A stretch of 64,000 nucleotides of DNA from Candidatus Levybacteria bacterium RIFCSPHIGHO2_01_FULL_40_16 (GCA_001783805.1 MFNS01000001.1:128649-192648); one strand, 5' to 3'. Shown: positions 1,226-60,265, counted from the stretch's first letter. Numbers and translations are program-made. The notes: generated by a model not told the origin, from the sequence alone.

Positions 1226-2413
1226 ATGAGAAGAGGGGTAGCCACATTCACATTAGATAGCGGGCGTTGTCCTCCATGGCTTTTTCAAAGAATGGTGGCG
1301 TTGGGGCGGGAAATTATTTATGTCTTAATTGACGAATATGGTCCGGATGAATTCGTCAGAAGGATTGCCGATCCGGTCTGGTTTCAATCTTTGGGAACAA
1401 TTCTGGCTTTTGACTGGAATGCGTCCGGCTTAACGACTATTCTGACAGCCGCCCTGAAAGAAGCAATCCGCGGAGACGAACGAAATCTCGGGTTGTTTAT
1501 CTGCGGAGGAAAAGGCAAAACCTCGCTCAAAACTCCGGTCGAGATAGAAAATTGGGGACGAATACTTAATTTCGATATTGAACAAACTCGCGGCCTCAAA
1601 TTTAGTTCCAAAATGGCCGCCAAAGTAGATAGTTCTCTGATCCAAGACGGTTATTCAATCTATCATCACGCCTTTATTTTTTCCCGCAATGGAGCATGGG
1701 CCGTAGTTCAGCAGGGAATGAATACAGCAAGTTCATCGGCAAGGAGATATCATTGGGGTGATGAACTTGATCTCAAAACTCAAAGCTCAAAACTCAAAGC
1801 TAAGAATTTTACTGAAGAACCACATACGGGTATTGCCTCTCAAGTGTTTGAGAAAAATGTTTTAAACTTGGTGGCCAAGAAAAGCAGAAAGAATAAAGAT
1901 ATTGCCACGCAACTTATTTCCTCAAGTTATATGACGGTAATGAAAAATATTCAATTGCTAAGGTCGCATTTTTCAAGTCTTTCTCGGTCAATAACCCTGA
2001 GAAACGGGGCAGAACAACTAAGTATTTTGCAGTTGTCCGACGAACACTTCAGGACTCATCCGGTTATTCTTGAAGATTTTGGGAAAAGTAAATACCTGGA
2101 AAAAATAATTCAGAAAGTCTGCTTCGAAAAGCCTCAAAATTACGAGCAATTCCTCGCCACCGAGGGTGTCGGGCCCAAAACTGTCCGCGCTTTGTCTTTG
2201 GTATCGGAGGTAATCTATGGAGCGGATCCTTCCTATGAAGATCCGGCCAGATACAGTTTTGCCTTCGGCGGAAAGGACGCCATTCCGTATCCCGTGGACA
2301 AGCCTATCTATGACAAAACCATTTCTTTGCTGGAGCGGGCAATAAACCGATCGAAAATCAATCTTTTCGAAAAGCAGAAGGCTCTGCGCCGCTTAGACAA
2401 AGTTTACAAATAA
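1226..2413 (+). CDS. DUF763-family protein
   Basis: N-terminus RCPPWLFQRMVALGREIIYVLIDEYGPDEFVRRIADPVWFQSLGTILAFDWNASGLTT resembles the conserved DUF763 N-terminal block as I recall it. Carries an in-frame heptamer repeat at 1772-1799 encoding LKTQSSKLKAK. Confidence 0.55.
   Translation: MRRGVATFTLDSGRCPPWLFQRMVALGREIIYVLIDEYGPDEFVRRIADPVWFQSLGTILAFDWNASGLTTILTAALKEAIRGDERNLGLFICGGKGKTSLKTPVEIENWGRILNFDIEQTRGLKFSSKMAAKVDSSLIQDGYSIYHHAFIFSRNGAWAVVQQGMNTASSSARRYHWGDELDLKTQSSKLKAKNFTEEPHTGIASQVFEKNVLNLVAKKSRKNKDIATQLISSSYMTVMKNIQLLRSHFSSLSRSITLRNGAEQLSILQLSDEHFRTHPVILEDFGKSKYLEKIIQKVCFEKPQNYEQFLATEGVGPKTVRALSLVSEVIYGADPSYEDPARYSFAFGGKDAIPYPVDKPIYDKTISLLERAINRSKINLFEKQKALRRLDKVYK
1772..1799 (+). 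repeat. heptanucleotide tandem repeat (CTCAAAA/CTCAAAG)x4 inside the DUF763 CDS
   Basis: ctcaaaactcaaagctcaaaactcaaag, in-frame, encoding LKTQSSKLKA. Confidence 0.8.
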
Positions 2414-2428
2414 TAGTATAATATCCCA

Positions 2429-3436
2429 ATGGCACAGCTATTCGGATTAGTTCTTTTGTCTCTTTTTATAACCGGGACACTTCTCATTCCCTTTATTGAT
2501 TTTCTTTACAAGATGAAATTCCGCCGCGCCAAACAGAAAACTGTGGATATGTTCAATAAGCCCACGCCTACCTTTGACAAATTTAACAATTGGAAAGCCG
2601 GTACGCCATTCGGTGGAGGAATATTGATTATTGCCGTTGTTTGTGCGCTAACCTTCTGGGCATACGGGATACTTGGTACAAGCATTAATGGCTGGGAAGT
2701 AGCTACGATTATGCTGACTTTTATCGGTTTTGGAGCGTTGGGTTTCTACGATGATTTCAGGAAACTGGTTGACGGACACGGAGGGTTTTTTGGCCTGAAA
2801 TTCAGACATAAATTCGCAATTCAGTGGGCCTTGGCGCTTGGAGTAGCCGCAATCATGTATTTTCAGCTGGGATACTCTTACATTTTCATTAGAGGCTTTG
2901 GGTTGGTGGCTCTGGGATTGTTATTTATTCCTTTTGCCGCTTTTGTAATTGTGGCTTTTGCAAATGCTTTTAATATTGCAGACGGCTTGGACGGTTTGGC
3001 ATCGGGACTGTTGTTAATTTGTCTGGCGGCATTTTTAGCAATTACTTCCAATCAGCTGGATCAGCCTCTGGGAATATTCGTTGCGGTTCTGATGGGCTCG
3101 GTTGGAGCGTTCCTGTATTTCAATATTTATAAAGCCAGAATTTGGCTGGGAGATGTGGGGGCCTTATCTTTGGGAGCAGCCTTGGCGGTAATCGGACTGT
3201 TAACCGGCAAAGTTATTGCTTTAGCATTTATTGGAGGAGTATTTATTATCGAAATTGCCTCATCTCTAATTCAAATCATTTCAAAAAAGTTTTTCCACAG
3301 AAAAATTTTTTCGGTTTCCCCTTTTCATCTTCTTTTACGGCGAAAAGGTTGGGATGAGCCGAAAATAGTGATGCGGGCTTGGCTTTTGGGATTTCTTTTT
3401 GCTATTCTTGGATTATATATCGCTTTTATTCAGTAA
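2429..3436 (+). CDS. mraY: phospho-N-acetylmuramoyl-pentapeptide transferase MraY
   Basis: Polytopic membrane protein with the MraY motifs NAFNIADGLDGLASG and DVGALSLGAALA. Sits in a division/cell-wall gene cluster. Confidence 0.9.
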   Translation: MAQLFGLVLLSLFITGTLLIPFIDFLYKMKFRRAKQKTVDMFNKPTPTFDKFNNWKAGTPFGGGILIIAVVCALTFWAYGILGTSINGWEVATIMLTFIGFGALGFYDDFRKLVDGHGGFFGLKFRHKFAIQWALALGVAAIMYFQLGYSYIFIRGFGLVALGLLFIPFAAFVIVAFANAFNIADGLDGLASGLLLICLAAFLAITSNQLDQPLGIFVAVLMGSVGAFLYFNIYKARIWLGDVGALSLGAALAVIGLLTGKVIALAFIGGVFIIEIASSLIQIISKKFFHRKIFSVSPFHLLLRRKGWDEPKIVMRAWLLGFLFAILGLYIAFIQ

Positions 3437-3455
3437 TTCATCTTCGTAATTCGAT

Positions 3456-7382: not shown

Positions 7383-8501
7383 ATGTTAATCAAACCTCAA
7401 ACAACTAACTTTGCCAAAATCCGGGTTTTGGGTATAGGCGGAGGAGGAATGAATGCGCTCAATTCCATGATTAAAATTAGCGAGGTTAAAGGGGTTGATT
7501 TTATTTCCGTAAATACCGATGCGCAGGTTCTTCTGCTGTCGCAATCCCCAACCAAAATTCAAATTGGAGAAAATCTTACCAAGGGTTTGGGTAGCGGCGG
7601 AAATCCGGATATCGGACGTCAGGCCGCCGAGGAATCTTATGAAAAAATAAAAGAATTTATTGATGGGTCGGACATGGTTTTTATCACAGCCGGTATGGGA
7701 GGCGGAACCGGTACTGGAGCAAGTGCGGTAATTGCCAGAGCCGCAAAAGAAGTTGGCGCTTTGACTGTGGCAGTTGTGACCAAGCCTTTTGCTTTTGAAG
7801 GAACCAGAAGAATGGTCGTGGCAGAAGACGGGATCGAAACTCTCCGAGACAAAGTGGACACGCTCATAGTTATTCCCAACCAAAGAATTCTGGATGTAGT
7901 TGACAAAAAAGTATCCCTTCTTGAAGCCTTTAGAATTGCAGATTCCGTACTAACGCAAGGGGTGCAAGGAATCTCCGATTTAATTACAATTCCGGGACTA
8001 ATCAATGTTGATTTCGCAGATGTAAAAGTCATTATGAGTAATGCCGGGTCGGCTTTGATGGGAATTGGTACCGGAGTTGGAGAAAATAGAGCGCAAACCG
8101 CAGCCCGCAGCGCAATTGCGTCTCCGCTTTTAGAAATTTCCATGGATGGAGCCAGGGGAGTTCTGTTTAACATTACCGGCGGGCCTGATTTGACAATGAC
8201 GGAAGTTGATGAGGCTGCCAAAATTATCTCCTCTGCTGCTGATCCTGATGCAAATATTATTTTCGGCGCGACAATTGATGAGGCAATGCATGACCAGATA
8301 AAAATCGCGGTTATTGCAACAGGTTTTGATCACGCCAGACAAACTCTTAAAGAATTTGTCAAGCCCTTAATAAGTCCGGTTGAGCCAAAACAGGAGTTAG
8401 CAAATGATACTCCGCAAGCGCCAAAACCGCAGGAAACGCCTGTTGAAGACAATAGCGACGACGCCTGGGACATCCCCGCATTCCTAAGACAGAGAAATTA
8501 A
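7383..8501 (+). CDS. ftsZ: cell division GTPase FtsZ
   Basis: Tubulin signature GGGTGTG ([13 protein letters not shown]), the NTDAQ motif, and an acidic C-terminal tail ending [10 protein letters not shown]. Confidence 0.95.
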
Positions 8502-9749: not shown

Positions 9750-10646
9750 CTAGTCTCTTAATTTTTTATAAAAAATTACCGCAAATATGCTTATAATTAT
9801 CAGCCCGATTATTGTGAATATCCATAGCCACAGATGGGACGGTTCGGGTTCCTTGATGCTAACTCCGATGATCATTGTGCCATTGCTTCCTGCTACATTG
9901 ATAATTTCTTTTGAAAGTACAACGCCTTTTTGCGAGAGAGTCAAGACATGTACTCCTTGAGGAACTTTATCAAACTGAAAGCTGTCACTTGCTATCCTCG
10001 CCCCCTGAATATTGGAATCAAGAAAGGCATTGGCATCCGATAACGCAAGAGCCTTTGACGTAGAAACGTTGTAAATAATTGAATAAAGCATTTCCCCTTT
10101 AGGCCCGATAATTGGCGCTTGAATCGGAGTCGGCTGGCTTGACGATCCAACATTTGGACTTTGAATAATTATGTAGCTGGCATTTCCTAAAGAGCTTAAT
10201 ATGTCTGCAGCGCCCTTTTGGGACTTCAAAGAAGCATTGGAAAGAGCAATGGTGCCAACGCCTTCCGCAGCGGCTTTTAGCGCAAGAGTATATACGGTAC
10301 AGCCAGTTCTGGAACCTCCCAAAATGACTCCCGCAAAAGACTGATTTGTTGAGGTTGGTGTACGGACAAAAGCAAAGCCGCAGTCGCCGATAGTCAGAGA
10401 CTGTACAGTGAGAGACGGACTAATATTCACGGTTGATTTAGCAGCGTTAAATGCAATACCGCCGCCGTTAATATTGACAGCAACTTGAAATATATCTCCC
10501 TTTTTGTAGGTAGACGTATTGGGGGTAATATTGATACTTCCTCCGGCTGCCACCATTTTTGGCGTAGTTACGTGTATCGCAATTGCTGTAAATACGGCTA
10601 AAAACAAAATTAAAAATTTATACTTAGTTTCCATAAGCTTTTGCAA
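9750..10646 (-). CDS. cohesin-like domain surface protein with C-terminal TM anchor
   Basis: N-terminal signal/TM. The module NINGGGIAFNAAKSTVNISPSLTVQSLTIGDCGFAF...FAGVILGGSRTGCTVYTLAL is paralogous to the module in the adjacent gene. Hydrophobic C-terminal anchor WIFTIIGLIIISIFAVIFYKKLRD. Confidence 0.55.
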   Translation of the reverse strand: MQKLMETKYKFLILFLAVFTAIAIHVTTPKMVAAGGSINITPNTSTYKKGDIFQVAVNINGGGIAFNAAKSTVNISPSLTVQSLTIGDCGFAFVRTPTSTNQSFAGVILGGSRTGCTVYTLALKAAAEGVGTIALSNASLKSQKGAADILSSLGNASYIIIQSPNVGSSSQPTPIQAPIIGPKGEMLYSIIYNVSTSKALALSDANAFLDSNIQGARIASDSFQFDKVPQGVHVLTLSQKGVVLSKEIINVAGSNGTMIIGVSIKEPEPSHLWLWIFTIIGLIIISIFAVIFYKKLRD

Positions 10647-14122: not shown

Positions 14123-17107
14123 ATGAAACCCGTAAAACAGAATATAAATTTTCCGGAATTAGAAAGAGAAATTCTAAATAGATGGCAGGAGAAAGGAATT
14201 GTAAGAAAGTATTTAGAAAAAAATAAAAACTCAAAAGAAAAATTTTCTTTCCTTGATGGTCCGATCACCGCAAATAATCCAATGGGAGTTCATCATGCTT
14301 GGGGAAGGACATATAAGGATTTGTGGCAGAGATTCTGGAATATGCGGGGAAAAGCTCAAAGATTTCAAAATGGGTTTGACGAACAAGGGCTTTGGGTTGA
14401 AGTGGAAGTGGAAAAAGAATTGGGGCTGAAAAATAAAAAAGACATTGAAAATCTTGTTCCGGGAGACAAATTTAAAAGTCTCGTAAAATTTATTAATCTT
14501 TGCAAGCAAAGGGTTAAAAAATTTTCGGGAGTCCAGACAGAACAAAGTAAGCGTTTGGGATACTTCATGGATTGGGACAAATCCTATCACACCTCCTCCG
14601 ATAAAAATAATTATGCGATCTGGAATTTCTTAAAAGTTGTCCACGAAAAAGGTTGGCTGTACAAAGGCCGTGACTCTGTTCCCTGGTGTCCGCGCTGCGG
14701 AACCGCAATTTCCCAGCACGAGATTTTGACAGAGGAATATAAAAATATAACCCACGATTCGATCTATGTTGAATATCCGATTAAAAACAGGAAAAACGAA
14801 TATTTAATTGCTTGGACAACAACGCCCTGGACTTTAATTGCCAATATAGCTCTTGCCGTAAATCCCAATTACGATTACGTAATTGCAACAGGGGAAGAAA
14901 AGGGAAATATATATTATCTGCTTAAAGAGAGCGCGGAAAAATTAGGTCTTAAAATCAAAAAAAATATTAAAGGAAAAGATTTGATCGGACTAAACTATTC
15001 TTCTCCTTTTGATAATTTACCAAAAGTGAAAAAAACACTGGGGAAATATCTGCATCAAGTTATTGCTACAGACGAATTAATTCTGCCAATCAGTAAAATT
15101 GAAGGAACAGGAATTATCCATATCGCCACCGGATCGGGAAGCGAAGATTTTCAGCTTGGTAAAAAAAACAATTTACCGGTAATTGAAGTTATTGACGAAG
15201 GAGGGAATTATCTGGATGGTTTTGGAGAATTTAGCCAAAAAAATGCCAAAAGGCATCCCGAATTAATCATTGACTTTCTTAAATCTTTCGAAAATGGCAA
15301 CTACTTTTTCCTAACGGAAAAATACACCCATAGGTATCCGACTTGCTGGAGATGTAAAACGGAATTGGTTTGGCGAGTGGTTGACGAATGGTATATTGCG
15401 ATGGATAAAAAACCCAGCTCAAAGTTCAAAGCTCAAAGCTCAAGGCCAGAGAATAAAACTTATAGGGAGCAAATGGTTGAGGTGGCAAAGAAGATTAATT
15501 GGATTCCCGATTGGGGTTTGGATCGCGAACTGGACTGGCTTAAAAATATGCATGATTGGTTGATTAGTAAAAAAAGATATTGGGGGTTGGCTTTGCCAAT
15601 TTGGGAATGTCATAAATGCGGAAATTTCGAAGTGATTGGCGGAAAAGAGGAGCTTAAAAAACGTGCAGTTAAAGGTTGGGGAGAATTTGACGGCAATAGC
15701 CCGCACCGGCCTTGGGTGGACTTGGTAAAAATTAAGTGCAGTAAGTGCGATGAAGTTGCTTCCCGAATTCCTGATGTGGGAAATCCCTGGCTGGATGCGG
15801 GAATTGTTCCGTTTTCCACCCTGCCGAAAGAATGGTTTCCGGCAGATTTCATAACGGAGAGTTTCCCCGGGCAGTTTAAAAATTGGTTTTATTCTCTGAT
15901 TGCAATGTCCACTGCGCTTAAAAAAATCAATTCCTTTAAAACGGTTTTGGGGTTCGCATCGGTCAGAGATGAAGCAGGCGAAGAAATGCACAAGAGTAAA
16001 GGAAATGCAATTGAATTTAATGAGGCAGCGGATAAAATCGGCGTTGATGTAATGCGCTGGATGTATTTAAGACAGGATCCCGAACAAAATCTCAATTTTG
16101 GAGTCAATGCCGCTGACAATGTCAGAAGACAATTTCATTTAATGTTGTGGAATGTATATAATTTCTTTATTTCCAATGCCATTGCCGACAGCTGGACGCC
16201 TCAGGGGATGGAAAAACAATCGGAAAACGTTCTGGACAAATGGATAATATCCAGGCTAAATAAATTAATTAAGGTTGTTACTGCGTCACTTGAAAAATAT
16301 AATTCCTTTTCTGCCGGGAATGCTATTGAAAATTTTCTCAGTGATTTGTCACTTTGGTATGTCCGCCGGTCACGCGAGAGAATCGGATTGTCTGCCGAAG
16401 ATGCAAAAGACAAAAATAATTGCTATCAAACTTTATGGGAGGTTTTAGCCAGCCTTTGCCAAATTCTAGCGCCTTTCACGCCATTTATGGCAGAAGAAAT
16501 GTATTTAAACTTAACGAATAAGGATTCGGTGCATTTAAGTGCTTGGCCGGAAGTCGGAGATATCGATGAAAAGCTGGAGCAGGAGATGGATTTTGCCAGA
16601 AAAATTTGTGAAATGGGGCATGCAAAAAGAAAAGAAGCGCTGATTAAAGTCAGACAACCCCTGGCACAATTAACAATTAATAATTCGCAATTAACAATTA
16701 ACGGCGAGATAGTTGAGCTGATTAAAGACGAATTGAATATTAAAAAAGTGGTTTTTGAAAAAGGAAAAGGAGAAATGTCAGTGTCCCTTGATGTAAATTT
16801 AACCAAGGAATTGAAAGAAGAGGGGAAAGCGCGGGATATTGTAAGAATGATTCAGGGCGAGCGGAAAAAAATAGGGACAGCATTGGATGAAAAAATAGAT
16901 GTTGTCCTCAAGGATTGGCCAAGAGAATTCGAAAATGAAATAAAAAAGAAAGCAATGGTTGCAACCTTAAAAAAGGGAAATAATTTTGAGGTTGTCCGCA
17001 AACCCCGCATCGACAGTCATGCATTAGAAACGCTTAACTTTTCACATCGCGCATCTTCGCTAAGTCCACGCTCAAATAAACGTGGCATTGTGGTGCGGGG
17101 TAAATGA
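14123..17107 (+). CDS. ileS: isoleucine--tRNA ligase (class I, type 2)
   Basis: HIGH-region variant PMGVHHAWGRTYKD, KMSKS variant MHKSKGN, four Cys knuckles (CPRCG, CWRCK, CHKCG, CSKCD) and a CP1 editing region. Contains in-frame heptamer repeats at 15419-15446 and 16686-16720. Confidence 0.95.
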   Translation: MKPVKQNINFPELEREILNRWQEKGIVRKYLEKNKNSKEKFSFLDGPITANNPMGVHHAWGRTYKDLWQRFWNMRGKAQRFQNGFDEQGLWVEVEVEKELGLKNKKDIENLVPGDKFKSLVKFINLCKQRVKKFSGVQTEQSKRLGYFMDWDKSYHTSSDKNNYAIWNFLKVVHEKGWLYKGRDSVPWCPRCGTAISQHEILTEEYKNITHDSIYVEYPIKNRKNEYLIAWTTTPWTLIANIALAVNPNYDYVIATGEEKGNIYYLLKESAEKLGLKIKKNIKGKDLIGLNYSSPFDNLPKVKKTLGKYLHQVIATDELILPISKIEGTGIIHIATGSGSEDFQLGKKNNLPVIEVIDEGGNYLDGFGEFSQKNAKRHPELIIDFLKSFENGNYFFLTEKYTHRYPTCWRCKTELVWRVVDEWYIAMDKKPSSKFKAQSSRPENKTYREQMVEVAKKINWIPDWGLDRELDWLKNMHDWLISKKRYWGLALPIWECHKCGNFEVIGGKEELKKRAVKGWGEFDGNSPHRPWVDLVKIKCSKCDEVASRIPDVGNPWLDAGIVPFSTLPKEWFPADFITESFPGQFKNWFYSLIAMSTALKKINSFKTVLGFASVRDEAGEEMHKSKGNAIEFNEAADKIGVDVMRWMYLRQDPEQNLNFGVNAADNVRRQFHLMLWNVYNFFISNAIADSWTPQGMEKQSENVLDKWIISRLNKLIKVVTASLEKYNSFSAGNAIENFLSDLSLWYVRRSRERIGLSAEDAKDKNNCYQTLWEVLASLCQILAPFTPFMAEEMYLNLTNKDSVHLSAWPEVGDIDEKLEQEMDFARKICEMGHAKRKEALIKVRQPLAQLTINNSQLTINGEIVELIKDELNIKKVVFEKGKGEMSVSLDVNLTKELKEEGKARDIVRMIQGERKKIGTALDEKIDVVLKDWPREFENEIKKKAMVATLKKGNNFEVVRKPRIDSHALETLNFSHRASSLSPRSNKRGIVVRGK
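15419..15446 (+). repeat. heptanucleotide tandem repeat (CTCAAAG-like)x4 inside ileS
   Basis: ctcaaagttcaaagctcaaagctcaagg, encoding SSKFKAQSSR in a segment of IleRS between WYIAMDK and REQMVEVAKKINWIPDWG. Confidence 0.8.
16686..16720 (+). repeat. heptanucleotide tandem repeat (CAATTAA)x5, one variant unit, inside ileS
   Basis: caattaacaattaataattcgcaattaacaattaa, encoding LAQLTINNSQLTING. Confidence 0.8.
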
Positions 17108-21270: not shown

Positions 21271-22292
21271 ATATTTTATTTTTTTCCCGTCGATTTTATC
21301 CCCATATAGGGGGAGTTGAGAAGCATGTTTTGGAAATTAGTCGGAACCTGATCAATAAAGGTCACAAAGTTATCGTTGTTACGGAACAGCATGCCCGTAA
21401 CTCTAAAATACAGGAAAATATTGAAGGAATTGATGTATTTAGGATTCCCAATCTAAGCGAGGGGTGGTTTAAGAAAATCCAGATTTGGAATTGGTTTTGG
21501 GCAAACAGAAAGCTTATAAAAAATGCAGACATTGTTCACTGCCATGACGTATTTTTTTGGTATTTACCGTTTAAATTTATATTTCCTTTTAAAAAAATAT
21601 TCACAACCTTTCATGGATATGAAGGTTACCCATTAACGTCAAAAGACATTTTAGTCCATAAAATATCGGAGAAATTATCAATGGGAAATATTTGCATTGG
21701 GGATTTTATTAAAAAATGGTACGGTACAAAACCAACTTTTGTTTCATACGGAGGAGTTAATAAAGTTAAAAGCGAAAAGTTAAAAGTTAAAAGTTCCGAA
21801 GGAGCGGTTTTTATCGGAAGACTTGACGAGCAAACGGGAATAATAACGTATGTTAAGGCGGTTGAGATAATCAAGAAGAAAATTCCAAATTTTGATTTTC
21901 TTATAATTGGAGATGGAAAACTTAAGACTGAAATTAGTGAAAAAATAAAAATATTGAAGCCCCGGAGCAATGCGGAAGAATACTTTAGAAAATATAGTTT
22001 TGCTTTTGTATCAAGATATCTCTCCATATTGGAAGCAATGGCTGCAAAAAGATTGGTCTTTGCAGTTTACGATAATCCTCTTAAGGAGGACTATTTAAGA
22101 ATGGCTCCTTTTTCGAAATATATTACAATTTCAAGTTCCCCATCCGAATTGGTTTCAAAAATTTCTTTTTATCTCGATAATCCTAGAGCTCAAGAGAAAA
22201 TGGTTAAAGAAGCAAATGCTTGGGTAAAAAAATATACTTGGGAAGAAATGACGGACATGTATTTAAAACTTTGGAAATCCGGAACGCATTAA
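21267..22292 (+). CDS. glycosyltransferase family 4 (GT-B)
   Basis: N-terminal MNILFFSRRFYPHIGGVEKHV typical of GT4/GT1 retaining transferases. Contains the heptamer repeat 21764-21791 (KVKSEKLKVKS). Confidence 0.75.
   Translation: MNILFFSRRFYPHIGGVEKHVLEISRNLINKGHKVIVVTEQHARNSKIQENIEGIDVFRIPNLSEGWFKKIQIWNWFWANRKLIKNADIVHCHDVFFWYLPFKFIFPFKKIFTTFHGYEGYPLTSKDILVHKISEKLSMGNICIGDFIKKWYGTKPTFVSYGGVNKVKSEKLKVKSSEGAVFIGRLDEQTGIITYVKAVEIIKKKIPNFDFLIIGDGKLKTEISEKIKILKPRSNAEEYFRKYSFAFVSRYLSILEAMAAKRLVFAVYDNPLKEDYLRMAPFSKYITISSSPSELVSKISFYLDNPRAQEKMVKEANAWVKKYTWEEMTDMYLKLWKSGTH
21764..21791 (+). repeat. heptanucleotide tandem repeat (AGTTAAA)x4, one variant unit, inside the GT4 gene
   Basis: agttaaaagcgaaaagttaaaagttaaa, encoding KVKSEKLKVK. 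Confidence 0.75.
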
Positions 22293-25826: not shown

Positions 25827-26777
25827 TTGAGTATGAAAGTTTCATTTATCGCTACGGTTTATAATGAAGAAAAATCAGTACTGCTATTATTAAAATCTAT
25901 ATTCTCTCAGTCCAGACTTCCGGATGAAATTATTATTGTTGACGGCGGTAGTCGCGACCGGACGGTCGCTAAAATTAAGAATTTAAAATTAAAAATTAAA
26001 AATTATAATGGGAAGTTTAAAATTATTGTAAAAAAAGGGAATAGATCGGTTGGCAGGAATGAAGCGATAAAAAATTCGAGCAATGGAATTATTATTTGTT
26101 CGGATGCAGGATGCATACTCGACAAGAATTGGGTTAAGAACATCATAGAGCCTTTTATAAATCCAGGTGTGGATGTGGTTGCCGGATATTACAAAGGTAA
26201 CGCTAAAACAATTTTTCAAAAATGTTTAATTCCCTATGTTTTAGTGACGGAAGATAAAATTAATTCTCAAAACTTTCTTCCCGCCACCCGCTCAATGGCT
26301 TTTAAAAAGTCAATTTGGGAGAAAGTAGGTAGATTTCCTGAGGAATTTAGTAATAACGAAGATTATGTTTTCGCTAAAAAATTAAAAAAAATTTCCGCCA
26401 ACATTGTTTTTGAAAAAAGTGCAATAGCTTATTGGATGCCAAGGGACAACTTAAAAGATGCCTTTGCAATGTTCTACCGTTTTGCAAAAGGCGATTCCGA
26501 ATCCCGTATTTTTAGACCAAAGGTATTTCTAATTTTTCTCCGGTATATTCTCGGTTTGACTCTTTTGTCATTATTTTTTCTTTTAAAGTCAGACTTAATA
26601 CTTAATACTTTATACTTAATACTTATTATCTATGTCCTTTGGTCGATATTAAAAAATTATAAATACGTCAAGGATATCCGTGCAGTTTTATTTCTCCCTT
26701 TATTGCAAATTATTTCCGATATCGCCGTAATGCTGGGTACAATTGCAGGATTATTTTCTTTTGTAGACCTCGACTAG
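25827..26777 (+). CDS. glycosyltransferase family 2 with C-terminal TM helices
   Basis: VSFIATVYNEEKSV...EIIIVDGGSRDRT GT2 motifs and a C-terminal hydrophobic segment. Contains heptamer repeats at 25972-26006 and 26594-26628. Confidence 0.75.
   Translation: MSMKVSFIATVYNEEKSVLLLLKSIFSQSRLPDEIIIVDGGSRDRTVAKIKNLKLKIKNYNGKFKIIVKKGNRSVGRNEAIKNSSNGIIICSDAGCILDKNWVKNIIEPFINPGVDVVAGYYKGNAKTIFQKCLIPYVLVTEDKINSQNFLPATRSMAFKKSIWEKVGRFPEEFSNNEDYVFAKKLKKISANIVFEKSAIAYWMPRDNLKDAFAMFYRFAKGDSESRIFRPKVFLIFLRYILGLTLLSLFFLLKSDLILNTLYLILIIYVLWSILKNYKYVKDIRAVLFLPLLQIISDIAVMLGTIAGLFSFVDLD
25972..26006 (+). repeat. heptanucleotide tandem repeat (AAATTAA)x5 inside the GT2 gene
   Basis: aaattaagaatttaaaattaaaaattaaaaattat, encoding KNLKLKIKNY. 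Confidence 0.7.
26594..26628 (+). repeat. heptanucleotide tandem repeat (CTTAATA)x5 inside the same GT2 gene (TM region)
   Basis: cttaatacttaatactttatacttaatacttatta, encoding LILNTLYLILI. Confidence 0.75.
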
Positions 26778-39287: not shown

Positions 39288-39291
39288 TCAC

Positions 39292-41546: not shown

Positions 41547-41558
41547 AATTTACTCCAG

Positions 41559-41630
41559 AGCCGATGGTGGGAATCGAACTCACGACCTAGTGTTTACGAA
41601 ACACTTGCTCTACCACTGAGCCACATCGGC
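41559..41630 (-). tRNA. tRNA-Thr (anticodon CGU)
   Basis: Reverse complement folds as a tRNA with one A.C mismatch in the T-stem: acceptor GCCGATG/CATCGGC, D-arm GCTC-AGTGGTA-GAGC, anticodon stem AGTGT/ACACT with loop TTCGTAA (CGT), T-arm GTGAG-TTCGATT-CCCAC. Confidence 0.75.
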
Positions 41631-41676
41631 ACAAGGATATTCTACAATAAAATAGGGCTAAATTGGAAGTCATTGA

Positions 41677-43094: not shown

Positions 43095-43196
43095 ATAAAT
43101 TCATTCTTGTATTTCATATAGTTTACTAACTTGTGCTTGTTAATGCAACAGGTTACTTGCTTTGCGTCTAACGGATTTGAGATAATAACCAACATT

Positions 43197-53400: not shown

Positions 53401-53673
53401 AAGGATTAAATGGTTGGAGTCTGTGTCCAATCCGGCTTCTTTGTCGTGGCGTGATCTCCGTGACACATAAATTTCGCAGCCAATAATCGGCTTTATGCCT
53501 TCGTCAATGCAGATTTTGTAAAACTTTATTGCCCCGTACATATTGCCATGGTCAGTTATGGCAATTGCCTTCATTCCTAGCTCTTTGGCGCGGCCTACCA
53601 TATCTTTTATTTTTGAAAGCCCGTCCAAAAGTGAAAATTCACTATGATTATGAAGATGTACGAAGTCTGCCAT
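50449..53673 (-). CDS. dnaE: DNA polymerase III subunit alpha
   Basis: PHP domain N-terminus MADFVHLHNHSEFSLLDG, polymerase core, and an OB-fold C-terminus. 1074 aa. Confidence 0.95.
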   Translation of the reverse strand: MADFVHLHNHSEFSLLDGLSKIKDMVGRAKELGMKAIAITDHGNMYGAIKFYKICIDEGIKPIIGCEIYVSRRSRHDKEAGLDTDSNHLILLAKNNVGYKNLMKIISIANLEGYYYRPRTDMELLKTHHEGLICLSSCVNGFVSEPLLQNQEETAKKRAQTLSEIFGKDNFYLEIQKHIDVKDQDALNEKLINLSQKLGIPLVATNDNHYVSPSDAQAQEILLCIQTQTTIDTKNRKLSMISSPDFYIKSQEEMTGLFIQTPAAIENTVKIADMCNIEITLGKWIMPVFDVPNSKSPAEYIQEQVKEGLKKRYKKITEQIKERTEYELSVILKKGYETYILIVADFVNWAKSHGITVGPGRGSNAGSIVSYALEISDVDPLFFKLPFERFLNPMRPSPPDIDLDFADNRRDEVIEYVTEKYGRDKVAQIITFGTMEARGSVRDTGRALGMPYSGPDRISKMIPPGWQGRAMTIEKALDQSPELKIAYQSEPETRKLLDLAKRLEGVARHASMHAAGVVIADKPLTEYTPLQKETNGEKIITQYDMYTVGEDGVGLLKIDFLGLRNLTIIQESLRFIKENQQKNIDLSTVTYEDKKTYELLSSGETTGIFQLESSGMRRYIKDLKPTSIFDLQAMVALYRPGPMANIPEFIRRKHNPSLIKYPDPRLSDILKESYGVITFQDDVLLTAIKVAGYSWLEADKLRKAIGKKITADMKKQHDKFVEGCIANGMVRKKAEEFWILFEPFAGYGFNKAHAAGYATIAFRTAYLKAHYPVEFMTALLTAESRGTTGPVKNEKIAQAVAECRRLKVTILPPDINKSHSDFSIENKINIRFGLTAIKNVGVAAIKSILDARKDEKFKSFGDFCFRVDLGPVNKKTIESLIKAGAMDTFGNRASLLMYYPEIVDKAHKKRKQEKEGQTSLFNEKDGVKTEDKSFDNSVDDFSPNEKLAFEKEFLGLYLTSHPQLDNLIYVKSAISHEIEHLPEEKEGAKIKIGGIIESIRRIFTKKNNSEMAFLVIANEKGISVECVVFPRTFEQYKSLLVRDSVIIVEGHLDTKNDLPSIIAEKISSVNHLDS

Positions 53674-53691: not shown

Positions 53692-55014
53692 TTATTTCAA
53701 TTTCATTTCCAGAGCAATTTTTATCTGATTGGCGTCTCCCTTGGGGAAATGTTGTTTTGCTTTTCCGAGTAAAAATCCAATAGCTTGAACTTTACCTGTT
53801 TTGTAGTCATTGACCGCTTTGGGGTTTTCATTGATGACTTTATTGATAATTTCACTTAGTTTCTTATTGTCAAGGATATTTATTTTTTTAGAAATTACAA
53901 TACATTTAATTAATTCTGCCGGCATTATGTTCTCAATATCGATTTTTTTGTTTATGATTACATTGGTAATTTGCTTTGCGTTTACTTCAAAAGTTTTCCC
54001 AGCTCTTACAGCTTCTTCAAAATAATTAGACAATTCCTTTTCTCGGGTCAAAATTTCCGCGTCATACCTTGGTAAACCATAATTTTTTGTAAATCTTACA
54101 AGTTTTAAGTCCGGCAATTCCGGCATTTGAGATTTGAAATTTGAGATTTGAAATTCCGATAATCGTATCGGCGGGATGTCCGGTTCCGGAAAGTAACGGT
54201 AATCATTCGCTTCTTCTTTGATTCTTTGGGAAACGGTTTTTTGTTTATCTTCATTCCATCCGCGCGTTTCCTGAACTGGCGTTTTTCCCACATTCAAAAT
54301 CTCCGTTTGTCTTTTAATTTCATATTCAATTGCCTTTTCTACAAATCGAAATGAATTAATGTTTTTAACTTCAACTTTATAATTTGGCAATTCGCTTTTG
54401 AGTTTTGAGTTTTGAGTTTTGAGTTCGCGAAGTGATATGTTGGGTTCAAGGCGCATGTTGCCTTCCTCCATGTCTGCGTTGGAAACGCCAAGATAGCGGA
54501 CGATTTGCTGAAGTTTTTTCAGGTATTCCACAACTTCTTTGGCGGTTTCAAAATCCGGTTCTGTCACAATTTCAACCAAAGGCACTCCGGAGCGATTAAA
54601 ATCTATCAATGAATCATCGCCTTGATGAGTCAATTTGGCAGTGTCTTCTTCCATGTGTACACGGGTAATGCCAATCTTTTTGCCGTTTGATAGGGCAATA
54701 ACCCCTTTTTGGCAAAAGGGCTGATCGTACTGACTTATTTGGTAGCCTTTGGGTAAATCGGGATAGAAATAGTTTTTCCGGTCAAATTTTGAAAAATTGG
54801 CAATTTTACAATTTAACGCCAGTCCAATCATGATGCACCAGTCAATAGCTGTTTTATTCGGGACAGGCAAAGCGCCGGGAAGACCTAAGCAAACGGGGCA
54901 GGTGTGAGCGTTAGGTTTCTTACCAAAATAATCCGCGGAACAACCGCAAAACATTTTAGATTTTGTTTTTAATTCAACATGAACTTCCAGTCCGATTACC
55001 GTTTTATAGATCAT
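53692..55014 (-). CDS. gatB: Asp-tRNA(Asn)/Glu-tRNA(Gln) amidotransferase subunit B
   Basis: MIYKTVIGLEVHVELKTKSKMFCGC N-terminus, NRSGVPLVEIVTEPD, and a C-terminal YqeY-like tail. Two in-frame heptamer repeats, at 54127-54154 and 54396-54423. Confidence 0.95.
   Translation of the reverse strand: MIYKTVIGLEVHVELKTKSKMFCGCSADYFGKKPNAHTCPVCLGLPGALPVPNKTAIDWCIMIGLALNCKIANFSKFDRKNYFYPDLPKGYQISQYDQPFCQKGVIALSNGKKIGITRVHMEEDTAKLTHQGDDSLIDFNRSGVPLVEIVTEPDFETAKEVVEYLKKLQQIVRYLGVSNADMEEGNMRLEPNISLRELKTQNSKLKSELPNYKVEVKNINSFRFVEKAIEYEIKRQTEILNVGKTPVQETRGWNEDKQKTVSQRIKEEANDYRYFPEPDIPPIRLSEFQISNFKSQMPELPDLKLVRFTKNYGLPRYDAEILTREKELSNYFEEAVRAGKTFEVNAKQITNVIINKKIDIENIMPAELIKCIVISKKINILDNKKLSEIINKVINENPKAVNDYKTGKVQAIGFLLGKAKQHFPKGDANQIKIALEMKLK
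54127..54154 (-). repeat. heptanucleotide tandem repeat (TTTCAAA/TCTCAAA)x4 inside gatB
   Basis: Plus strand tttgagatttgaaatttgagatttgaaa. Coding strand encodes EFQISNFKSQ. Confidence 0.8.
54396..54423 (-). repeat. heptanucleotide tandem repeat (CTCAAAA)x4 inside gatB
   Basis: Plus strand ttttgagttttgagttttgagttttgag. Coding strand ctcaaaactcaaaactcaaaactcaaaa encodes LKTQNSKLKS between conserved GatB blocks (SLREL...ELPNYKVEVKNINSFR). Confidence 0.85.
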
Positions 55015-55092: not shown

Positions 55093-56507
55093 TAGAGTAT
55101 GGGTTTCATTTTGTGCCATTCCGTTGTCTGTTCGTATGCATGTCCGATTTGAAATAATTTAGCTTCTGAAAACTGCTGACCCAGAATTTGCATTCCAACG
55201 GGAAGGCCTTTTGAGAATCCAATTGGAACGGAAAGTCCCGGAATTCCTGCCAAATTAGCAGTGACAGTAAGAATATCTGATAAATACATTTTCAATGGGT
55301 CATTAATTTTTTCTCCCAATTTCCAGGGAAGGGTTGGGGAAACAGGAGAAATAATTGCATCAACTTGCTTGAAAGCATTTTCAAAATCCTGTTTTATTAA
55401 AGTCCTGACCTGCATTGCTTTTCTATAATATGCATCATAATATCCCGCAGAAAGCGTAAATGTTCCCAACATAATTCTTCTTTTAGCTTCTTCACCGAAA
55501 TTCTGCCTTACAGAACCAAAACGAACCCCATCGTATCTTGCTAAATTTGAGGATACTTCTGACGGCTGGATAATATAATAACAGGCGATCGCGTAATCGG
55601 AATATTTTAAATTAATATCTATAATCTCTGCTCCCAAATCTTTTAATTGTTTTTCAGCGAAAAGAAAAGGCTTTTTTACTTCATCATCAACATTCTCCAA
55701 ATCTTTTCTGCTTATTCCGAGTTTTAATCCTCTTATTCCCTTTTTTAAATCTTTAAGATAGTCTGGAACAGGTTTACTTGAAGTTGTTGCGTCGTTTGCG
55801 TCTTTACCTGCAGTAACATTTAAGAATAATGCGGAATCTTCAACTGTCTTTGTAATATGTCCAATAGAATCAAGGGAAGACGCCATTGAAATAATTCCGT
55901 ACCTGCTGACTCTTCCGTAAGTTGGTTTTAGTCCGACAATATTGCAAAAGCTGGCCGGTTGCCTGCTAGAACCGCCAGTGTCGGTACCTGTAGCGGCGAT
56001 ACACATGTCAGACGCTACAGATACAGCTGAACCGCTTGAAGATCCTCCAGGCACGTACTCTTTATTCCACGGATTTTTAGTCGGACCAAAATCAGAATTT
56101 TCCCCAGATGCACCGTGTCCCCATGCGTCATGGTTTAATTTTCCAAGAATTATTGCGCCCGCATCTTTTAATTTCTTAACAACAGTCGCATCATATTCGG
56201 GAACATAATCTTTTAAAACATTTGATGCTGCAGTTGTTTTCATTCCCTTGGTTGAAAATAAATCTTTCAAAGCAATGGGAATTCCGAGCAGCGGCTTAGT
56301 CTCCCAGGCCTGGCCTTGCGAAGCTAAATTGTCAGCTTTTTTCGCTTGCTCCAACGCATCTTCTTCAGTGATAGTGATAAATGCATTTAATTCTCGATTG
56401 TGCTTTTTTATTTGCTCAAGACAAGCCTTCGTCAATTCAACCGATGAAAATTTTTTTGCTTTCAATCCCCCTTTTGCATTTTTAATTGTAAGTTGGTTTA
56501 GCTCCAT
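55092..56507 (-). CDS. gatA: Asp-tRNA(Asn)/Glu-tRNA(Gln) amidotransferase subunit A
   Basis: Amidase signature GGSSSGSAVSVAS with the catalytic Ser-cisSer-Lys context. Confidence 0.95.
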   Translation of the reverse strand: MELNQLTIKNAKGGLKAKKFSSVELTKACLEQIKKHNRELNAFITITEEDALEQAKKADNLASQGQAWETKPLLGIPIALKDLFSTKGMKTTAASNVLKDYVPEYDATVVKKLKDAGAIILGKLNHDAWGHGASGENSDFGPTKNPWNKEYVPGGSSSGSAVSVASDMCIAATGTDTGGSSRQPASFCNIVGLKPTYGRVSRYGIISMASSLDSIGHITKTVEDSALFLNVTAGKDANDATTSSKPVPDYLKDLKKGIRGLKLGISRKDLENVDDEVKKPFLFAEKQLKDLGAEIIDINLKYSDYAIACYYIIQPSEVSSNLARYDGVRFGSVRQNFGEEAKRRIMLGTFTLSAGYYDAYYRKAMQVRTLIKQDFENAFKQVDAIISPVSPTLPWKLGEKINDPLKMYLSDILTVTANLAGIPGLSVPIGFSKGLPVGMQILGQQFSEAKLFQIGHAYEQTTEWHKMKPIL

Positions 56508-56539
56508 AACAATTTAACAATTTATCAATTTAACAATGA

Positions 56540-57648: not shown

Positions 57649-57663
57649 TTTCTAGAGAATCGT
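57649..57663 (+). repeat. 15-bp direct repeat TTTCTAGAGAATCGT (left copy) flanking ORF 57728..58060
   Basis: Matches 58097-58111 (TTTCTAGAGAATCAT) at 14 of 15 positions. Contains the TCTAGA palindromic core. Confidence 0.6.
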
Positions 57664-57727
57664 TAAGATAGGTGCATAATGGTGATTAGGAAAGTTATAG
57701 TTGACGGGAGAATTTTAAAGTGGCAGA

Positions 57728-58060: not shown

Positions 58061-58907
58061 TTTTCATCTTCTGAAGAATACTTTTTTTGGCGCATTTTTC
58101 TAGAGAATCATCGAGGGGATTTGGTACAATATTTTTATTGTATTTTTTTTCAAGGGCAATTTTAATTAATAAATCCGTGAACTGCGGATTTTTTGGCAGA
58201 ATTGGGCCGTGTAAATACGTTCCGAAGCTGTTTTTATAAACCGCACCTTCGGTTTCGTCCCCCGCCTGCCACGACTTGCCGTCTGGTATGGCGGGCAGGT
58301 CTCCATTATTTCCGTATCCCTTAATCACTTTTCCGAGTGGTTTAACCGATTTCCCCAAGTAAGTTCTTCCTCCATGATTTTCGAAACCCACCAGCGCTTG
58401 CTCATTGTCATTCTGACGAAGGTCAGAATCTCCTTTTGTATGAGATCCTGAAACAAGTTCAGGATGACACGGACTAATGGCGATGTTGCCAATTAAGCGG
58501 GGTTCATCGGGACCCGGGTTTTCGGTATATAGATCGAGAATATTTAAGCCTTTAATAATTTTTCCATCTGCTTCTCTATAATATTTTCCCAGGAATTGGT
58601 ACGCGCCGCAGATATAGAGTCCGGGGATTCCATCTTCAATCATCTCTTTTAATGCTTCACGCTTTTTTAATAAATCATAAGCGACAATTTTTTGCTGTTG
58701 ATCCTGTGCCCCGCCCATAAATATCAAATCGCACATTTTCAACTCATTAATCTTAAATTCTAAATCAAGCAATTTAATTTCAACTTTAATCCCGCGCCAT
58801 TCGCAGCGTTTTTGCAAAACAATAATATTTCCCCGGTCTCCGTATGTTGACATTAACTCCGGGTATAACCAGCCGATTACTAAATTGTATTTTGTATTAT
58901 GTATCAT
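58053..58907 (-). CDS. gatD: lipid II isoglutaminyl synthase glutaminase subunit GatD (CobB/CobQ-like GATase)
   Basis: Collinear with GatD: LYPELMSTYGDRGN, catalytic Cys context GLYICGAYQFLGK, VGFENHGGRTY, GTYLHGPILPKN. Carries a 26-aa in-frame insertion (SPCHPELVSGSHTKGDSDLRQNDNEQ) encoded by the palindromic element at 58407-58470. Confidence 0.8.
   Translation of the reverse strand: MIHNTKYNLVIGWLYPELMSTYGDRGNIIVLQKRCEWRGIKVEIKLLDLEFKINELKMCDLIFMGGAQDQQQKIVAYDLLKKREALKEMIEDGIPGLYICGAYQFLGKYYREADGKIIKGLNILDLYTENPGPDEPRLIGNIAISPCHPELVSGSHTKGDSDLRQNDNEQALVGFENHGGRTYLGKSVKPLGKVIKGYGNNGDLPAIPDGKSWQAGDETEGAVYKNSFGTYLHGPILPKNPQFTDLLIKIALEKKYNKNIVPNPLDDSLEKCAKKSILQKMKIK
58097..58111 (+). repeat. 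15-bp direct repeat TTTCTAGAGAATCAT (right copy)
   Basis: Right partner of the 57649-57663 repeat (same TTTCTAGAGAATC motif with the TCTAGA core). Lies 37 bp downstream of the 57728..58060 stop and inside the 3' end region of gatD. Confidence 0.6.
58407..58470. repeat. double-hairpin palindromic element, copy B (in-frame inside gatD)
   Basis: GTCATTCTGAcgaagGTCAGAATC ... GATCCTGAAacaAGTTCAGGATGACAC. Translated in the gatD frame with no stop codon. Confidence 0.7.
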
Positions 58908-58927
58908 GTATCATGTATCATGTATTA
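58886..58927 (-). repeat. heptanucleotide microsatellite (TGTATCA/TGTATTA)x6 spanning the gatD start codon and its 5' region
   Basis: tgtattttgtattatgtatcatgtatcatgtatcatgtatta. The gatD ATG (58907) and first seven codons (MIHNTKY) are encoded by the repeat. Confidence 0.8.
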
Positions 58928-58936
58928 AGTATAAAA

Positions 58937-60265
58937 TTATAGAATCTTCTTTCCTGTCAGAATTTTTCTTACGTCAAGCATGGCTGAATAGGTCGGTAAA
59001 ATATATAAAATCTCGTCTTTTAGTGTTGCGATTAAGGCATCGAAAACAGCCTCTTCAAGATTTTCTATAATTTTAAATTTTGAACTGTAATTTTGACTTT
59101 TGACGTTTGAATTTTGAGCTTTAGAAGAATATTTTAAACGTAAAGCCATATCAAAAGCCCGATCACCGGAAATCAAAATATTTTTAAATTTAGAAATGTA
59201 TTCCTCTGTGTCAGCATCCCAGATCCAGGAAACGTCTCTTCCGTCAGGAATGCGGTCATTCAAAACCAACAATAAATTCTTGGCATTTAACCTGACAATT
59301 GTTTTTAAAGATTCGTTAAGGCTTGTGGGATTTTTTGACAGGAAAATCTGTATTTTTTTTCCATAAACATTCAATATTTCCTGTCTGCCAAAAGCCGGCT
59401 TAAAGTCTTTCAAAGAGGATATAATTTTTTCATTGCTAAAGCCAATCTCTTTTGCCAAAAGAACAGCAGCATTAGTATTGTATTTATTGTAGTCTCCGAA
59501 CAAAGGATAAATCGGCGAAGAAGTAAATGTTTTTTGCGGATGTTTAAGTCCACAGTTATCGCAATGCCAATTACCAAGATGTGAGAAATATGCAGAGTCG
59601 TAAGCTAATTTTCGGCCGCAATTCGGACAATAAGTTGAATCAGAAGCATGTTGGGCTTTATTAATACCATTTGCCGGATTAATTCCAAAGTATTTTACAG
59701 TTGCACCTTTAAGGTGTAAGCCTAAATAAGTTATTTGCGGATCATCAGCATTCAATATTAGGGTTGTTGCGCTATTTAATTTCTTCAAAGCTTCGCGCCA
59801 TTTACTGGCGATAGTATTTATTTCTCCATATCGATCCAATTGATCGCGGAATAAATTTAAAAGAATTATAAAATTAGGATCGGCTATTTCCTTCAAAATC
59901 AACGGAAGCGTATTTTCGTCAATTTCAAAAATCGTATAATCATAATTTAATGTACAAAGTACGTTGCTATGTAGCAGCATACTTGAAGCAATGCCGTTGA
60001 GAAGGTTTGCGCCACCTTCATTTTGGAAGACGCGGTAATTATTTTTTTTCAAAATAGTTCTTATCAGTTTGGCAGTAGTTGTTTTTCCGTTAGTTCCGGC
60101 AATCAAGATAATTTTTAATTTTGGATTATGCTTTAAAATTTGCTTGATAAAGTTTGGATTTATGGATAAGGCAATATGCCCCGGCCAAGTTGACCCCGAT
60201 CCGAGATTAAGTAAGCGACTAAAGGCTGAGAGTAATTTACCAAGCAGGATCAATAATAAATTCAT
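58937..60265 (-). CDS. murT: lipid II isoglutaminyl synthase MurT (Mur ligase family with zinc ribbon)
   Basis: N-terminus LILLGKLLSAFSRLLNLGSGSTWPGHIAL, Mur ligase P-loop IAGTNGKTTTAKLI, and the Cys4 ribbon CPNCGRK...CDNCGLK characteristic of MurT. Start trimmed to ATG 60265 from the listed 60364. Confidence 0.8.
   Translation of the reverse strand: MNLLLILLGKLLSAFSRLLNLGSGSTWPGHIALSINPNFIKQILKHNPKLKIILIAGTNGKTTTAKLIRTILKKNNYRVFQNEGGANLLNGIASSMLLHSNVLCTLNYDYTIFEIDENTLPLILKEIADPNFIILLNLFRDQLDRYGEINTIASKWREALKKLNSATTLILNADDPQITYLGLHLKGATVKYFGINPANGINKAQHASDSTYCPNCGRKLAYDSAYFSHLGNWHCDNCGLKHPQKTFTSSPIYPLFGDYNKYNTNAAVLLAKEIGFSNEKIISSLKDFKPAFGRQEILNVYGKKIQIFLSKNPTSLNESLKTIVRLNAKNLLLVLNDRIPDGRDVSWIWDADTEEYISKFKNILISGDRAFDMALRLKYSSKAQNSNVKSQNYSSKFKIIENLEEAVFDALIATLKDEILYILPTYSAMLDVRKILTGKKIL
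59078..59119 (-). repeat. heptanucleotide tandem repeat (NNTCAAA)x6 inside murT
   Basis: Plus strand ttttgaactgtaattttgacttttgacgtttgaattttgagc. Coding strand encodes SSKAQNSNVKSQNYSSKFK near the MurT C-terminus. Confidence 0.7.

Follow-up and report, generated by a model that had tools for sequence, protein, structure and literature searches.

Short tandem arrays of seven-nucleotide units lie in frame within conserved genes of a 64,000-nucleotide (nt) stretch of DNA from Candidatus Levybacteria bacterium RIFCSPHIGHO2_01_FULL_40_16 (GCA_001783805.1 MFNS01000001.1:128649–192648), a Levybacteria metagenome-assembled genome belonging to the Microgenomates in the candidate phyla radiation (CPR); the whole stretch is referred to below as the window, and positions are counted from its first letter. 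These arrays are probably heptanucleotide microsatellites that arise in place by misaligned DNA synthesis with a preference for a register of 7 nt, and that are then filtered by selection. Their hosts include ileS, gatB and murT, core genes of translation and cell-wall synthesis that are essential. An earlier inspection of the sequence (the original prediction) had reported five arrays, one each in a DUF763 gene, ileS and murT and two in gatB, as four to six units of one motif. All five were recovered at the positions and with the peptides reported, by Tandem Repeats Finder (TRF), from the raw sequence and by translation of the open reading frames (ORFs), but the copy numbers are about four (3.9–4.4) and the window contains at least six unit types rather than one motif (besides CTCAAAR: ACAATTA, AAAGTTA, AAAATTA, ACTTAAT and TGTATCA).

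The bias towards a period of seven in the window is real and lies far beyond chance. Arrays were detected with TRF and, separately, with a scan of our own requiring at least three copies at fixed thresholds; expectations were taken from 30 third-order Markov simulations, a null model that ignores codon structure but in which the remaining periods act as internal controls. The scan of the window returned eight arrays of period 7, against a mean of 0.03 in the simulations, a single array of period 8 and none of periods 5, 6 or 9–15. The period-7 arrays listed for the window comprise nine in genes (DUF763, ileS twice, gatB twice, murT and two glycosyltransferases) and one in a spacer, and this genome, with nine coding arrays in approximately 60 kb, is richer in coding arrays than its relatives. 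The only other array in the window with a unit of at least 5 nt, the period-8 array between gatC and gatA, could be a product of the same process or of another. The same excess was found in 80 metagenomic loci (963 kb; designated by L-numbers, with protein homologs designated by P-numbers) picked via gatB for their relatives of GatB (50–79% identity): these hold 51 period-7 arrays, where 0.33 would be expected, and arrays of periods 5, 6 and 8–15 are no more numerous than expected. The non-random and period-specific character of the arrays thus stands, and arrays of other periods are not equally common in either the window or the related loci.

Among these 51 arrays, 35 lie in ORFs and 16 in spacers, but the sampling via gatB must be borne in mind, as 26 of the 51 fall in gatB itself; the remaining 25 are divided between ORFs (9) and spacers (16). 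The density of arrays is about 0.29 per kb in non-ORF DNA, 0.039 per kb in all ORFs and about 0.011 per kb in ORFs outside gatB, so that arrays are 8- to 26-fold denser per base in spacers than in ORFs, even though the counts favour ORFs. This fits a genome-wide process, the products of which would be mostly removed from genes by selection.

The resemblance between the peptides encoded in unrelated genes has a simple arithmetical basis. Seven is coprime to three, so all three frames are inevitably used in reading an array of at least 21 nt, and the product is a circularly permuted form of a single heptapeptide (CTCAAAA, for example, gives LKTQNSK). Look-alike peptides rich in S, K, Q and N occur in unrelated genes because each array is read in this way, and only stop-free units survive in genes because all three frames are translated. 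The arrays are indeed read in different frames without stop codons, as originally predicted, but this is no sign of an element, as it follows from the coprimality of 7 and 3 together with survival. The stop filter alone is weak, with 1608 of the 2340 heptamer necklaces stop-free. Selection on the peptide seems to add to it: for 18 of 20 coding unit types the encoded peptide lies on the hydrophilic side of the weighted median for stop-free heptamers (mean hydropathy of the coding units –1.10, versus –0.05 for the weighted median). A run of A (a lysine codon) following T escapes TAA and TGA only as TCAAA, and TCAAA accounts for 20% of stop-free units containing AAA; this core is present in none of the 16 spacer arrays of the relatives. 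Hydrophilicity and this constraint on runs of A explain most, but not all, of the recurrence of the motif. Stop avoidance and base composition do not suffice as a full account of CTCAAAR, given that stop-free units containing TCAAA make up 2.2% of the composition weight and that an excess (P = 0.02) is left even with the presence of AAA as a condition. The GC content falls to 31–34% across a block of genes for glycosyltransferases and membrane proteins (window positions ~20000–42000), and the arrays of the glycosyltransferase region are C-poor and have no C-containing core.

The two arrays of gatB were compared with 120 Levybacteria-type homologs, with the Thermotoga and Aquifex proteins (PDB 3al0_B and 3h0l_B), with an AlphaFold (AF2) model (mean pLDDT 82) and with a simple neighbour-joining tree of GatB (about 400 columns). 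At site 1, the segment following EPNISLR ranges from about 6 to more than 30 residues across the 120 homologs; in the window it is six residues longer than the minimal Levybacteria form, KEGETS, and seven residues longer than 3al0_B and 3h0l_B, and it forms the least confident loop of the model (pLDDT <50 at residues 201–205). The window, L127, L128 and L152, and hence at least four genomes, carry an identical (ACTCAAA)4 here; they have 64–72% GatB identity and are placed apart in the tree; elsewhere in gatB of these genomes, the codons for identical residues match in only about 55% of cases. Units in neighbouring lineages include CTCAAAA, ATCAAAA, GTCAAAA, CCCAAAT and TTAACAA. L209 and L210 (87% DNA identity) are separated by four substitutions that create or abolish two perfect units, no indel being involved, and the 35-nt array of L141 is exactly 21 nt longer than the non-repetitive site 1 loop of L139. 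L140 was rejected as an independent carrier of the array: over 1.8 kb, a segment that takes in the first half of gatB, this 3.6-kb contig (JGI Ga0209323_10032466) matches the window at 99.6% identity, but the identity drops to about 64% thereafter, and the contig is a recombinant or an assembly chimera.

Other small repeated sequences are also found in the site 1 loop. Hairpin-like inserts, CCTCTCCCTCAGGGAGAGG, are present in L138 and L165, inserts of the GTCATTGCGAGG...GACGAAGCAATCC type in L149 and L167, and CCCCCTTCCTGAAGGGGG in L208; arrays of 9 nt, AATACTACA, encoding NTTNTTNKQ, also occur in relatives (the loci covered being L138, L165, L149, L167, L208 and L205). The loop acts as a general sink for small insertions.

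Site 2 of gatB behaves differently from what had been predicted: it had been described as an insertion, like site 1, but its length is unchanged across all 120 homologs, 3al0_B and 3h0l_B, and its peptide is a confident helix of the model (residues 287–295). The perfect array of L127 (TCTCAAA x4) matches base for base the non-repetitive sequence of L130 (TCTCAGA TTGAAAA ACTTAAA TCCCAAA). Arrays of the ATCAAAT, GATTAAA, CAGTTAT and AAATATT types are found at this site in other lineages, and many lineages have no array. In many relatives (L129, 10001–11347; P0002–P0008, P0010, P0011, P0013 and others), the array is replaced by the peptide QIRQLADQ, encoded by CAAATCCGCCAGCTGGCGGATCAA, which holds a perfect 18-nt palindrome, ATCCGCCAGCTGGCGGAT; this segment has the same length and the same CAAAT flanks as the array and is scattered across the GatB tree. 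The palindrome suggested a general template-switching regime that would also yield perfect palindromes, an idea that finds no support in this genome: hairpins with stems of at least 8 number 22 in the window, against 23.2 expected, and thus show no excess.

The interpretation of the gatB and ileS arrays as insertions also holds for the first site of ileS, and net insertion at an otherwise conserved site was found, in addition, for murT and DUF763, whereas the second site of ileS, like that of gatB, shows no length change. The four insertions add 6–12 amino acids each and lie in variable loops. The DUF763 gene (PF05559, E = 3e-115) has a net insertion of 27 nt (9 amino acids). Its array is absent from four of the closest relatives (80–83% identity), and the empty site in one of them, the 83%-identical ortholog of L370, reads GAT GAG TTG GGG AGG AAG; no target-site duplication was seen in this comparison. 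The loop at ileS site 1 is 10 amino acids longer than the majority form, KKDESGK, in an alignment of IleRS homologs. L371 (81%-identical ileS) has a perfect (AAATCAA)4.6 at this site, in the same register as in the window, and each unit differs between the two at two of seven positions, yet is uniform inside each array. Site 2 of ileS is equal in length to its orthologs; its unit includes TAA, and units 3 and 4 are mutated, so that an in-frame stop is avoided. Internal seven-residue repeats, such as KFSIFNSKFSI and ELRIKNLELRI, are found at this site in many relatives. The murT array is an insertion of 12 amino acids relative to MurT of L127, L129 and L130. As to whether relatives carry the same arrays at the same sites, this is the case for gatB site 1 in L127, L128 and L152, but elsewhere the units differ or, as in DUF763, the array is absent. 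All arrays are listed in Table 1.

Table 1. Heptanucleotide arrays and the single period-8 array of the window, with start-adjacent spacer arrays of related loci (units are given in the sense orientation; window coordinates unless a locus is named)
Feature	Positions	Strand	Unit and copy number	Gene or location	Encoded peptide	TRF result
DUF763 array	1772..1801	+	(CTCAAAA/CTCAAAG)x4.3	DUF763 gene, 1226–2413	LKTQSSKLKA	two alternating units, 14-nt period, 100% match
ileS site 1 array	15416..15446	+	(AGCTCAA)x4	ileS, 14123–17107	SSKFKAQSS	15416–15443, AGCTCAA x4.0, 90% match
ileS site 2 array	16666..16702	+	(ACAATTA)x5.3	ileS	AQLTINNSQLTIN	
GT4 glycosyltransferase array	21762..21795	+	(AAAGTTA)x4.9	gene 21267–22292	KVKSEKLKVKSS	
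GT2 glycosyltransferase array 1	25971..26005	+	(AAAATTA)x5	gene 25827–26777	KIKNLKLKIKNY	
GT2 glycosyltransferase array 2	26593..26625	+	(ACTTAAT)x4.7	gene 25827–26777	DLILNTLYLILI (hydrophobic)	
gatB site 2 array	54125..54155	-	(TTCAAAT/CTCAAAT)x4.4	gatB, 53692–55014	EFQISNFKSQM	alternating ATTTGAG/ATTTGAA, 14-nt period, 100% match
gatB site 1 array	54396..54425	-	(CTCAAAA)x4.3, perfect	gatB, 53692–55014	ELKTQNSKLKS	TTTTGAG x4.3, 100% match
murT-gatD spacer array	58885..58932	-	(ATACATG/ATACAAA)x6	spacer; spans gatD start codon (58907)		
murT array	59078..59122	-	(NTCAAAA)x6, degenerate	murT, 58937–60364 (public records: from 60265)	KAQNSNVKSQNYSSK	59091–59122, TTTTGAC-like x4.4, 80% match
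Example of array-spanning peptide segment					ELKTQNSKLKSELPNYK	
Period-8 array	56507..56537	.	(TAACAATT)x3.9	gatC-gatA spacer		
Start-adjacent spacer array, L137	5847–5877					
Start-adjacent spacer array, L140	2617–2649					
Start-adjacent spacer array, L151	2282–2311					
Start-adjacent spacer array, L188	10230–10253					
Start-adjacent spacer array, L198	6230–6253					

The spacer array between murT and gatD has two units fewer in L129 than in the window. It places three ATGs, spaced by 7 nt and hence in three frames, just past the murT stop codon, only the third of which (58907) opens gatD; this array may affect the translational coupling of murT and gatD. Five of the 16 spacer arrays in the relatives stop 1–9 nt 5' of the next start codon, and those of L137 and L151, both (AAATTAG)n, are nearly identical in different genomes. 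In L204, the unit AAAGATT recurs in a coding array (2951–2980), in a spacer array (7917–8000) that is the longest seen (84 nt, 12 copies) and in the gatB helix. This case is anecdotal, because units are not shared within genomes significantly more often than expected (16 pairs of 58, against 10.9; P = 0.1), and the same test gives no significant support for genome-specific preferred units, which would have suggested a template. An (AATCGTC)n array just after the gatD start in L150 (~7508–7560) contains a nested in-frame insert of 21 nt, unlike L139 and L141, and this insert includes the small hairpin CCCGAT TAA ATCGGG. Nested inserts in arrays are also suggested by protein alignments of GatB (P0023), IleRS (P0151, P0189, P0200 and P0209) and DUF763 (P0257, P0272 and P0273). 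Few indels of at least 6 nt separate loci of 82–94% identity.

We infer from these observations that misaligned DNA synthesis (slippage or transient misalignment) would both create the arrays and keep their units uniform in place, and that this synthesis would strongly favour a 7-nt register in Levybacteria and other Microgenomates. The process would be active genome-wide, with purifying selection in genes keeping only frame-preserving arrays. The genic arrays surviving this filter would be those that are stop-free in all three sense frames and that encode a tolerated peptide, whether a hydrophilic one in a variable surface loop (gatB site 1, ileS site 1, murT and DUF763) or, alternatively, a sequence near the one replaced (gatB helix 287–295 and ileS site 2). 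An array in an essential gene would then be frozen, because a change of one unit would be a lethal frameshift, and any further change would occur by substitution, intra-array conversion or three-unit steps. The constant length of gatB site 2 and the resemblance of its arrays to the sequence replaced fit an origin in place, and the internally uniform, lineage-specific units at ileS site 1 and gatB site 1 fit concerted evolution. Steps of whole units are suggested by the loss or gain of two units in the spacer array between L129 and the window and by the difference of 21 nt at gatB site 1 between L139 and L141. The original prediction had offered a choice between a small mobile or templated element and a lineage-specific slippage hotspot filtered by selection; the hotspot fits best, and the mobile element is weakened by the diversity of units that track composition and by the lack of a target duplication.

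Several findings nevertheless weigh against such an origin. Nothing examined accounts for the preference for 7 nt. Perfect period-7 runs show a bimodal length distribution, the second peak of which lies at 30–33 nt, whereas stepwise slippage predicts a geometric one, and the spacer arrays share their modal length with the ORF arrays. The net length changes (+18, +27, +30 and +36 nt) include no multiple of 21. The identical (ACTCAAA)4 at gatB site 1 in scattered genomes needs strong homogenisation, recombination or recurrent creation. Finally, the TCAAA core is shared by five of the nine coding arrays of the window, for which P = 0.02 when conditioned on stop-free units with AAA and P = 7e-7 without the AAA condition.

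Part of this evidence would be expected if the arrays derived from a small cassette, either templated or mobile, with some 30 nt (4.3–4.6 heptamers) being written in one event and then decaying by point mutation; such a tract could come from synthesis on a template at a break or from an activity encoded by an element. Perfect arrays cluster at 30–33 nt, with few of two or three units, in ORFs and spacers alike, and arrays of CTCAAAR show the same length mode in many phyla, with a peak at 32–33 nt. The scattered gatB array, the complete absence of the DUF763 array from the closest relatives, the gathering of other small repeats in the same loops, the hairpins nested within arrays and the three AAAGATT arrays of L204 point the same way. 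Such a cassette is unlikely, however, as the units differ among sites of a single genome, their sharing within genomes is not significant, they track local composition, and the arrays at sites with no length change resemble the sequence that they replaced. The arrays consist of direct repeats only, without terminal inverted repeats, and the DUF763 empty site has no target duplication; the length mode is in part inflated because homologous gatB arrays (26 of 51) are counted repeatedly. CTCAAAA arrays are present in more than 120 stretches of the genome collection, from many phyla, but a special universal element was rejected as their explanation, since composition-matched control heptamers are about as common in viral contigs: for arrays of three units, CTCAAAA was found in 33 stretches, TCCAAAA in 40 and TCACAAA in 14 (the hexamer CTCAAA in 69 and the octamer in 3). 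In a related and likewise unlikely version, a dedicated Microgenomates process would write heptamer tracts of about 30 nt into the chromosome in single events, and small hairpin insertions would afterwards land in these tracts. The bimodal lengths, the identical gatB array in scattered lineages and the nested hairpins leave room for it; if true, new peptide segments would be actively generated, in a lineage-specific manner, in conserved essential proteins.

The arrays might instead be selected nucleic-acid motifs, sites for a protein reading single-stranded or double-stranded heptamers (for instance an OB-fold protein of the cold-shock or S1 type that acts on mRNA) placed where coding allows. 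In keeping with this, the DNA identity at gatB site 1 is above that predicted from synonymous divergence, the window spacer array overlaps the gatD start, five spacer arrays of the relatives end shortly before a start codon, and there is a parallel in the Beggiatoaceae, where discussion of the TAACTGA repeats has included a role in translation and the binding of heptamers by CspB (PMC4679880). This seems improbable, given that the units have no common core, that spacer arrays are never of the TCAAA type, that arrays lie at arbitrary depths within ORFs and that their presence is patchy even in close relatives. Rfam covariance models applied at the gathering score to the whole window detected three tRNAs only, with no match at the arrays.

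Selection acting on the protein, with flexible linkers rich in S, K, Q and N being favoured and the DNA periodicity arising as a by-product, would agree with the hydrophilic, loop-located peptides of four of the five arrays originally reported. It is very unlikely, because no peptide needs perfect nucleotide periodicity with identical codons, arrays are also found in spacers and in a hydrophobic membrane stretch (26593–26625), and only period 7 is enriched, not periods 6, 9 and 12, which are the easiest for peptide repeats. The spacer arrays and the period spectrum largely refute this explanation.

A heptanucleotide repeat within an ORF is also the architecture of neuO (PMC3046976), which raises the question of phase-variable loci switched on and off in the same manner. 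Stability was judged here from the assembled sequences of six independent assemblies. The window is 100% identical to contig MFOW01000003.1 of NCBI GCA_001782525.1 and to ENA/JGI assemblies, all from one groundwater population; across the six assemblies (99.98–100% identity), the arrays are identical and the few differences fall outside them. Variants in the full-length GatB and IleRS clusters are one or two substitutions apart and equal in length, and 28 blocks of the collection index the exact GatB protein (24 of the contigs carrying it were read). The arrays seem to be fixed in the population, rather than hypervariable, because the six assemblies agree and the protein variants keep their length. 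With identical arrays, variants that are point substitutions only, only about four units per array and essential housekeeping genes as hosts, contingency loci are highly improbable, and the view already taken in the original prediction, that these are not ordinary contingency loci, is borne out. An assembly or sequencing artefact can be dismissed almost entirely, as the sequence is equal in ENA, JGI and NCBI assemblies from different samples, the arrays are in frame and homologous arrays occur in many other genomes.

Some other features of the window are less closely connected with the arrays. A 24-nt repeat (11054–11156), within an ORF (10624–11808, minus strand) for a secreted protein with C-terminal dockerin-like repeats, encodes a Pro/Thr-rich linker, PTPTSTPVPTPTSTPAPTPTPT; this is a conventional in-frame repeat that has no relation to the heptamers. 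Gene orientation changes from plus to minus at about 39.3 kb, and the cumulative GC skew flattens at 42–44 kb (region 39287–44000); this change, at about 39–44 kb, may mark the terminus of replication or a site of rearrangement. The gene for Pol III alpha lies at 50449–53673. A polymerase of the PolX family that has a PHP domain is encoded at 61765–63531 (minus strand), and its synteny with murT-gatD-gatCAB-dnaE is conserved in several Levybacteria loci (L001, L129 and L130).

The presence of these arrays in essential genes of a CPR lineage provides a natural experiment on the cause of a 7-nt bias that has been known since 2007. Orthologous sites, rewritten independently or in concert in dozens of lineages, offer a way to measure how arrays originate (stepwise, by three-unit jumps or by conversion) and what limits them. 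Such arrays would give reduced genomes a simple means of gaining peptide insertions specific to a lineage in conserved enzymes such as GatB, IleRS and MurT, and the segments rich in S, K, Q and N would be DNA-level products rather than conserved functional motifs. They can also distort alignments and phylogenies, given that identical arrays are shared by lineages that are not sisters.

According to the accounts of Mrazek, Guo and Shah (2007) given in PMC4679880 and PMC4692102, heptanucleotide repeats are the most abundant class of long simple sequence repeats in most bacterial genomes; polymerase slippage has been proposed as the cause, and a connection with how much DNA the polymerase holds has been suggested. 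By the same accounts, units within genes are multiples of three and heptamers are mainly intergenic; examples include the tandem heptamers of Calothrix and Nostoc and the GGGNATC of Xanthomonas and Nostoc (cited in PMC4692102 and PMC4679880). The arrays described here resemble this class in their exact 7-nt unit, their period-specific excess, the diversity of their units and the variation of spacer copy number among relatives. They differ from it in that nine of the ten arrays of the window and 35 of the 51 arrays of the relatives lie in ORFs, including essential genes, and in that they are short (about 4.4 units) and occur in a CPR lineage. The poly-psi repeat of neuO, a variable-number tandem repeat of the Escherichia coli K1 prophage CUS-3, is a coding (AAGACTC)n that specifies RLKTQDS heptads in 2–93 copies and acts as a phase switch (PMC3046976). 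It, too, has a 7-nt unit translated in three frames into a seven-residue repeat, and its unit is one base from a rotation of CTCAAAA, such that the peptides (RLKTQDS versus LKTQNSK) are nearly alike; however, neuO is a hypervariable repeat in a dispensable surface-modification gene, whereas the arrays of the window have about four units and are fixed in essential genes. In marine Beggiatoaceae, and also in some cyanobacteria and Bacteroidetes, direct repeats of TAACTGA are located mostly just 5' of start codons (PMC4679880); they share with the present arrays a short length (2–6 copies), a patchy phylogeny and, for the gatD array and five of the 16 spacer arrays of the relatives, a start-adjacent position. 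Unlike the many, mostly genic units found here, they consist of one intergenic heptamer, and related heptamers are rarely repeated. Rickettsia palindromic elements are palindromes of about 150 bp that are inserted in frame in housekeeping genes and are presumed to be mobile (PMC10969869). In both cases, repeated DNA adds an in-frame peptide at tolerant positions of conserved proteins in a reduced genome, but the Rickettsia elements have a conserved family sequence, whereas the arrays are about 30 nt long, non-palindromic and devoid of a family consensus, and at two sites they replace rather than insert. Among the papers listed by a literature search on heptamer repeats in CPR, Patescibacteria or Microgenomates, none mentioned a heptamer. 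What is new with respect to the systems described is that the known heptamer bias extends into essential genes, where the arrays are short, fixed and in frame and undergo concerted evolution at orthologous sites.

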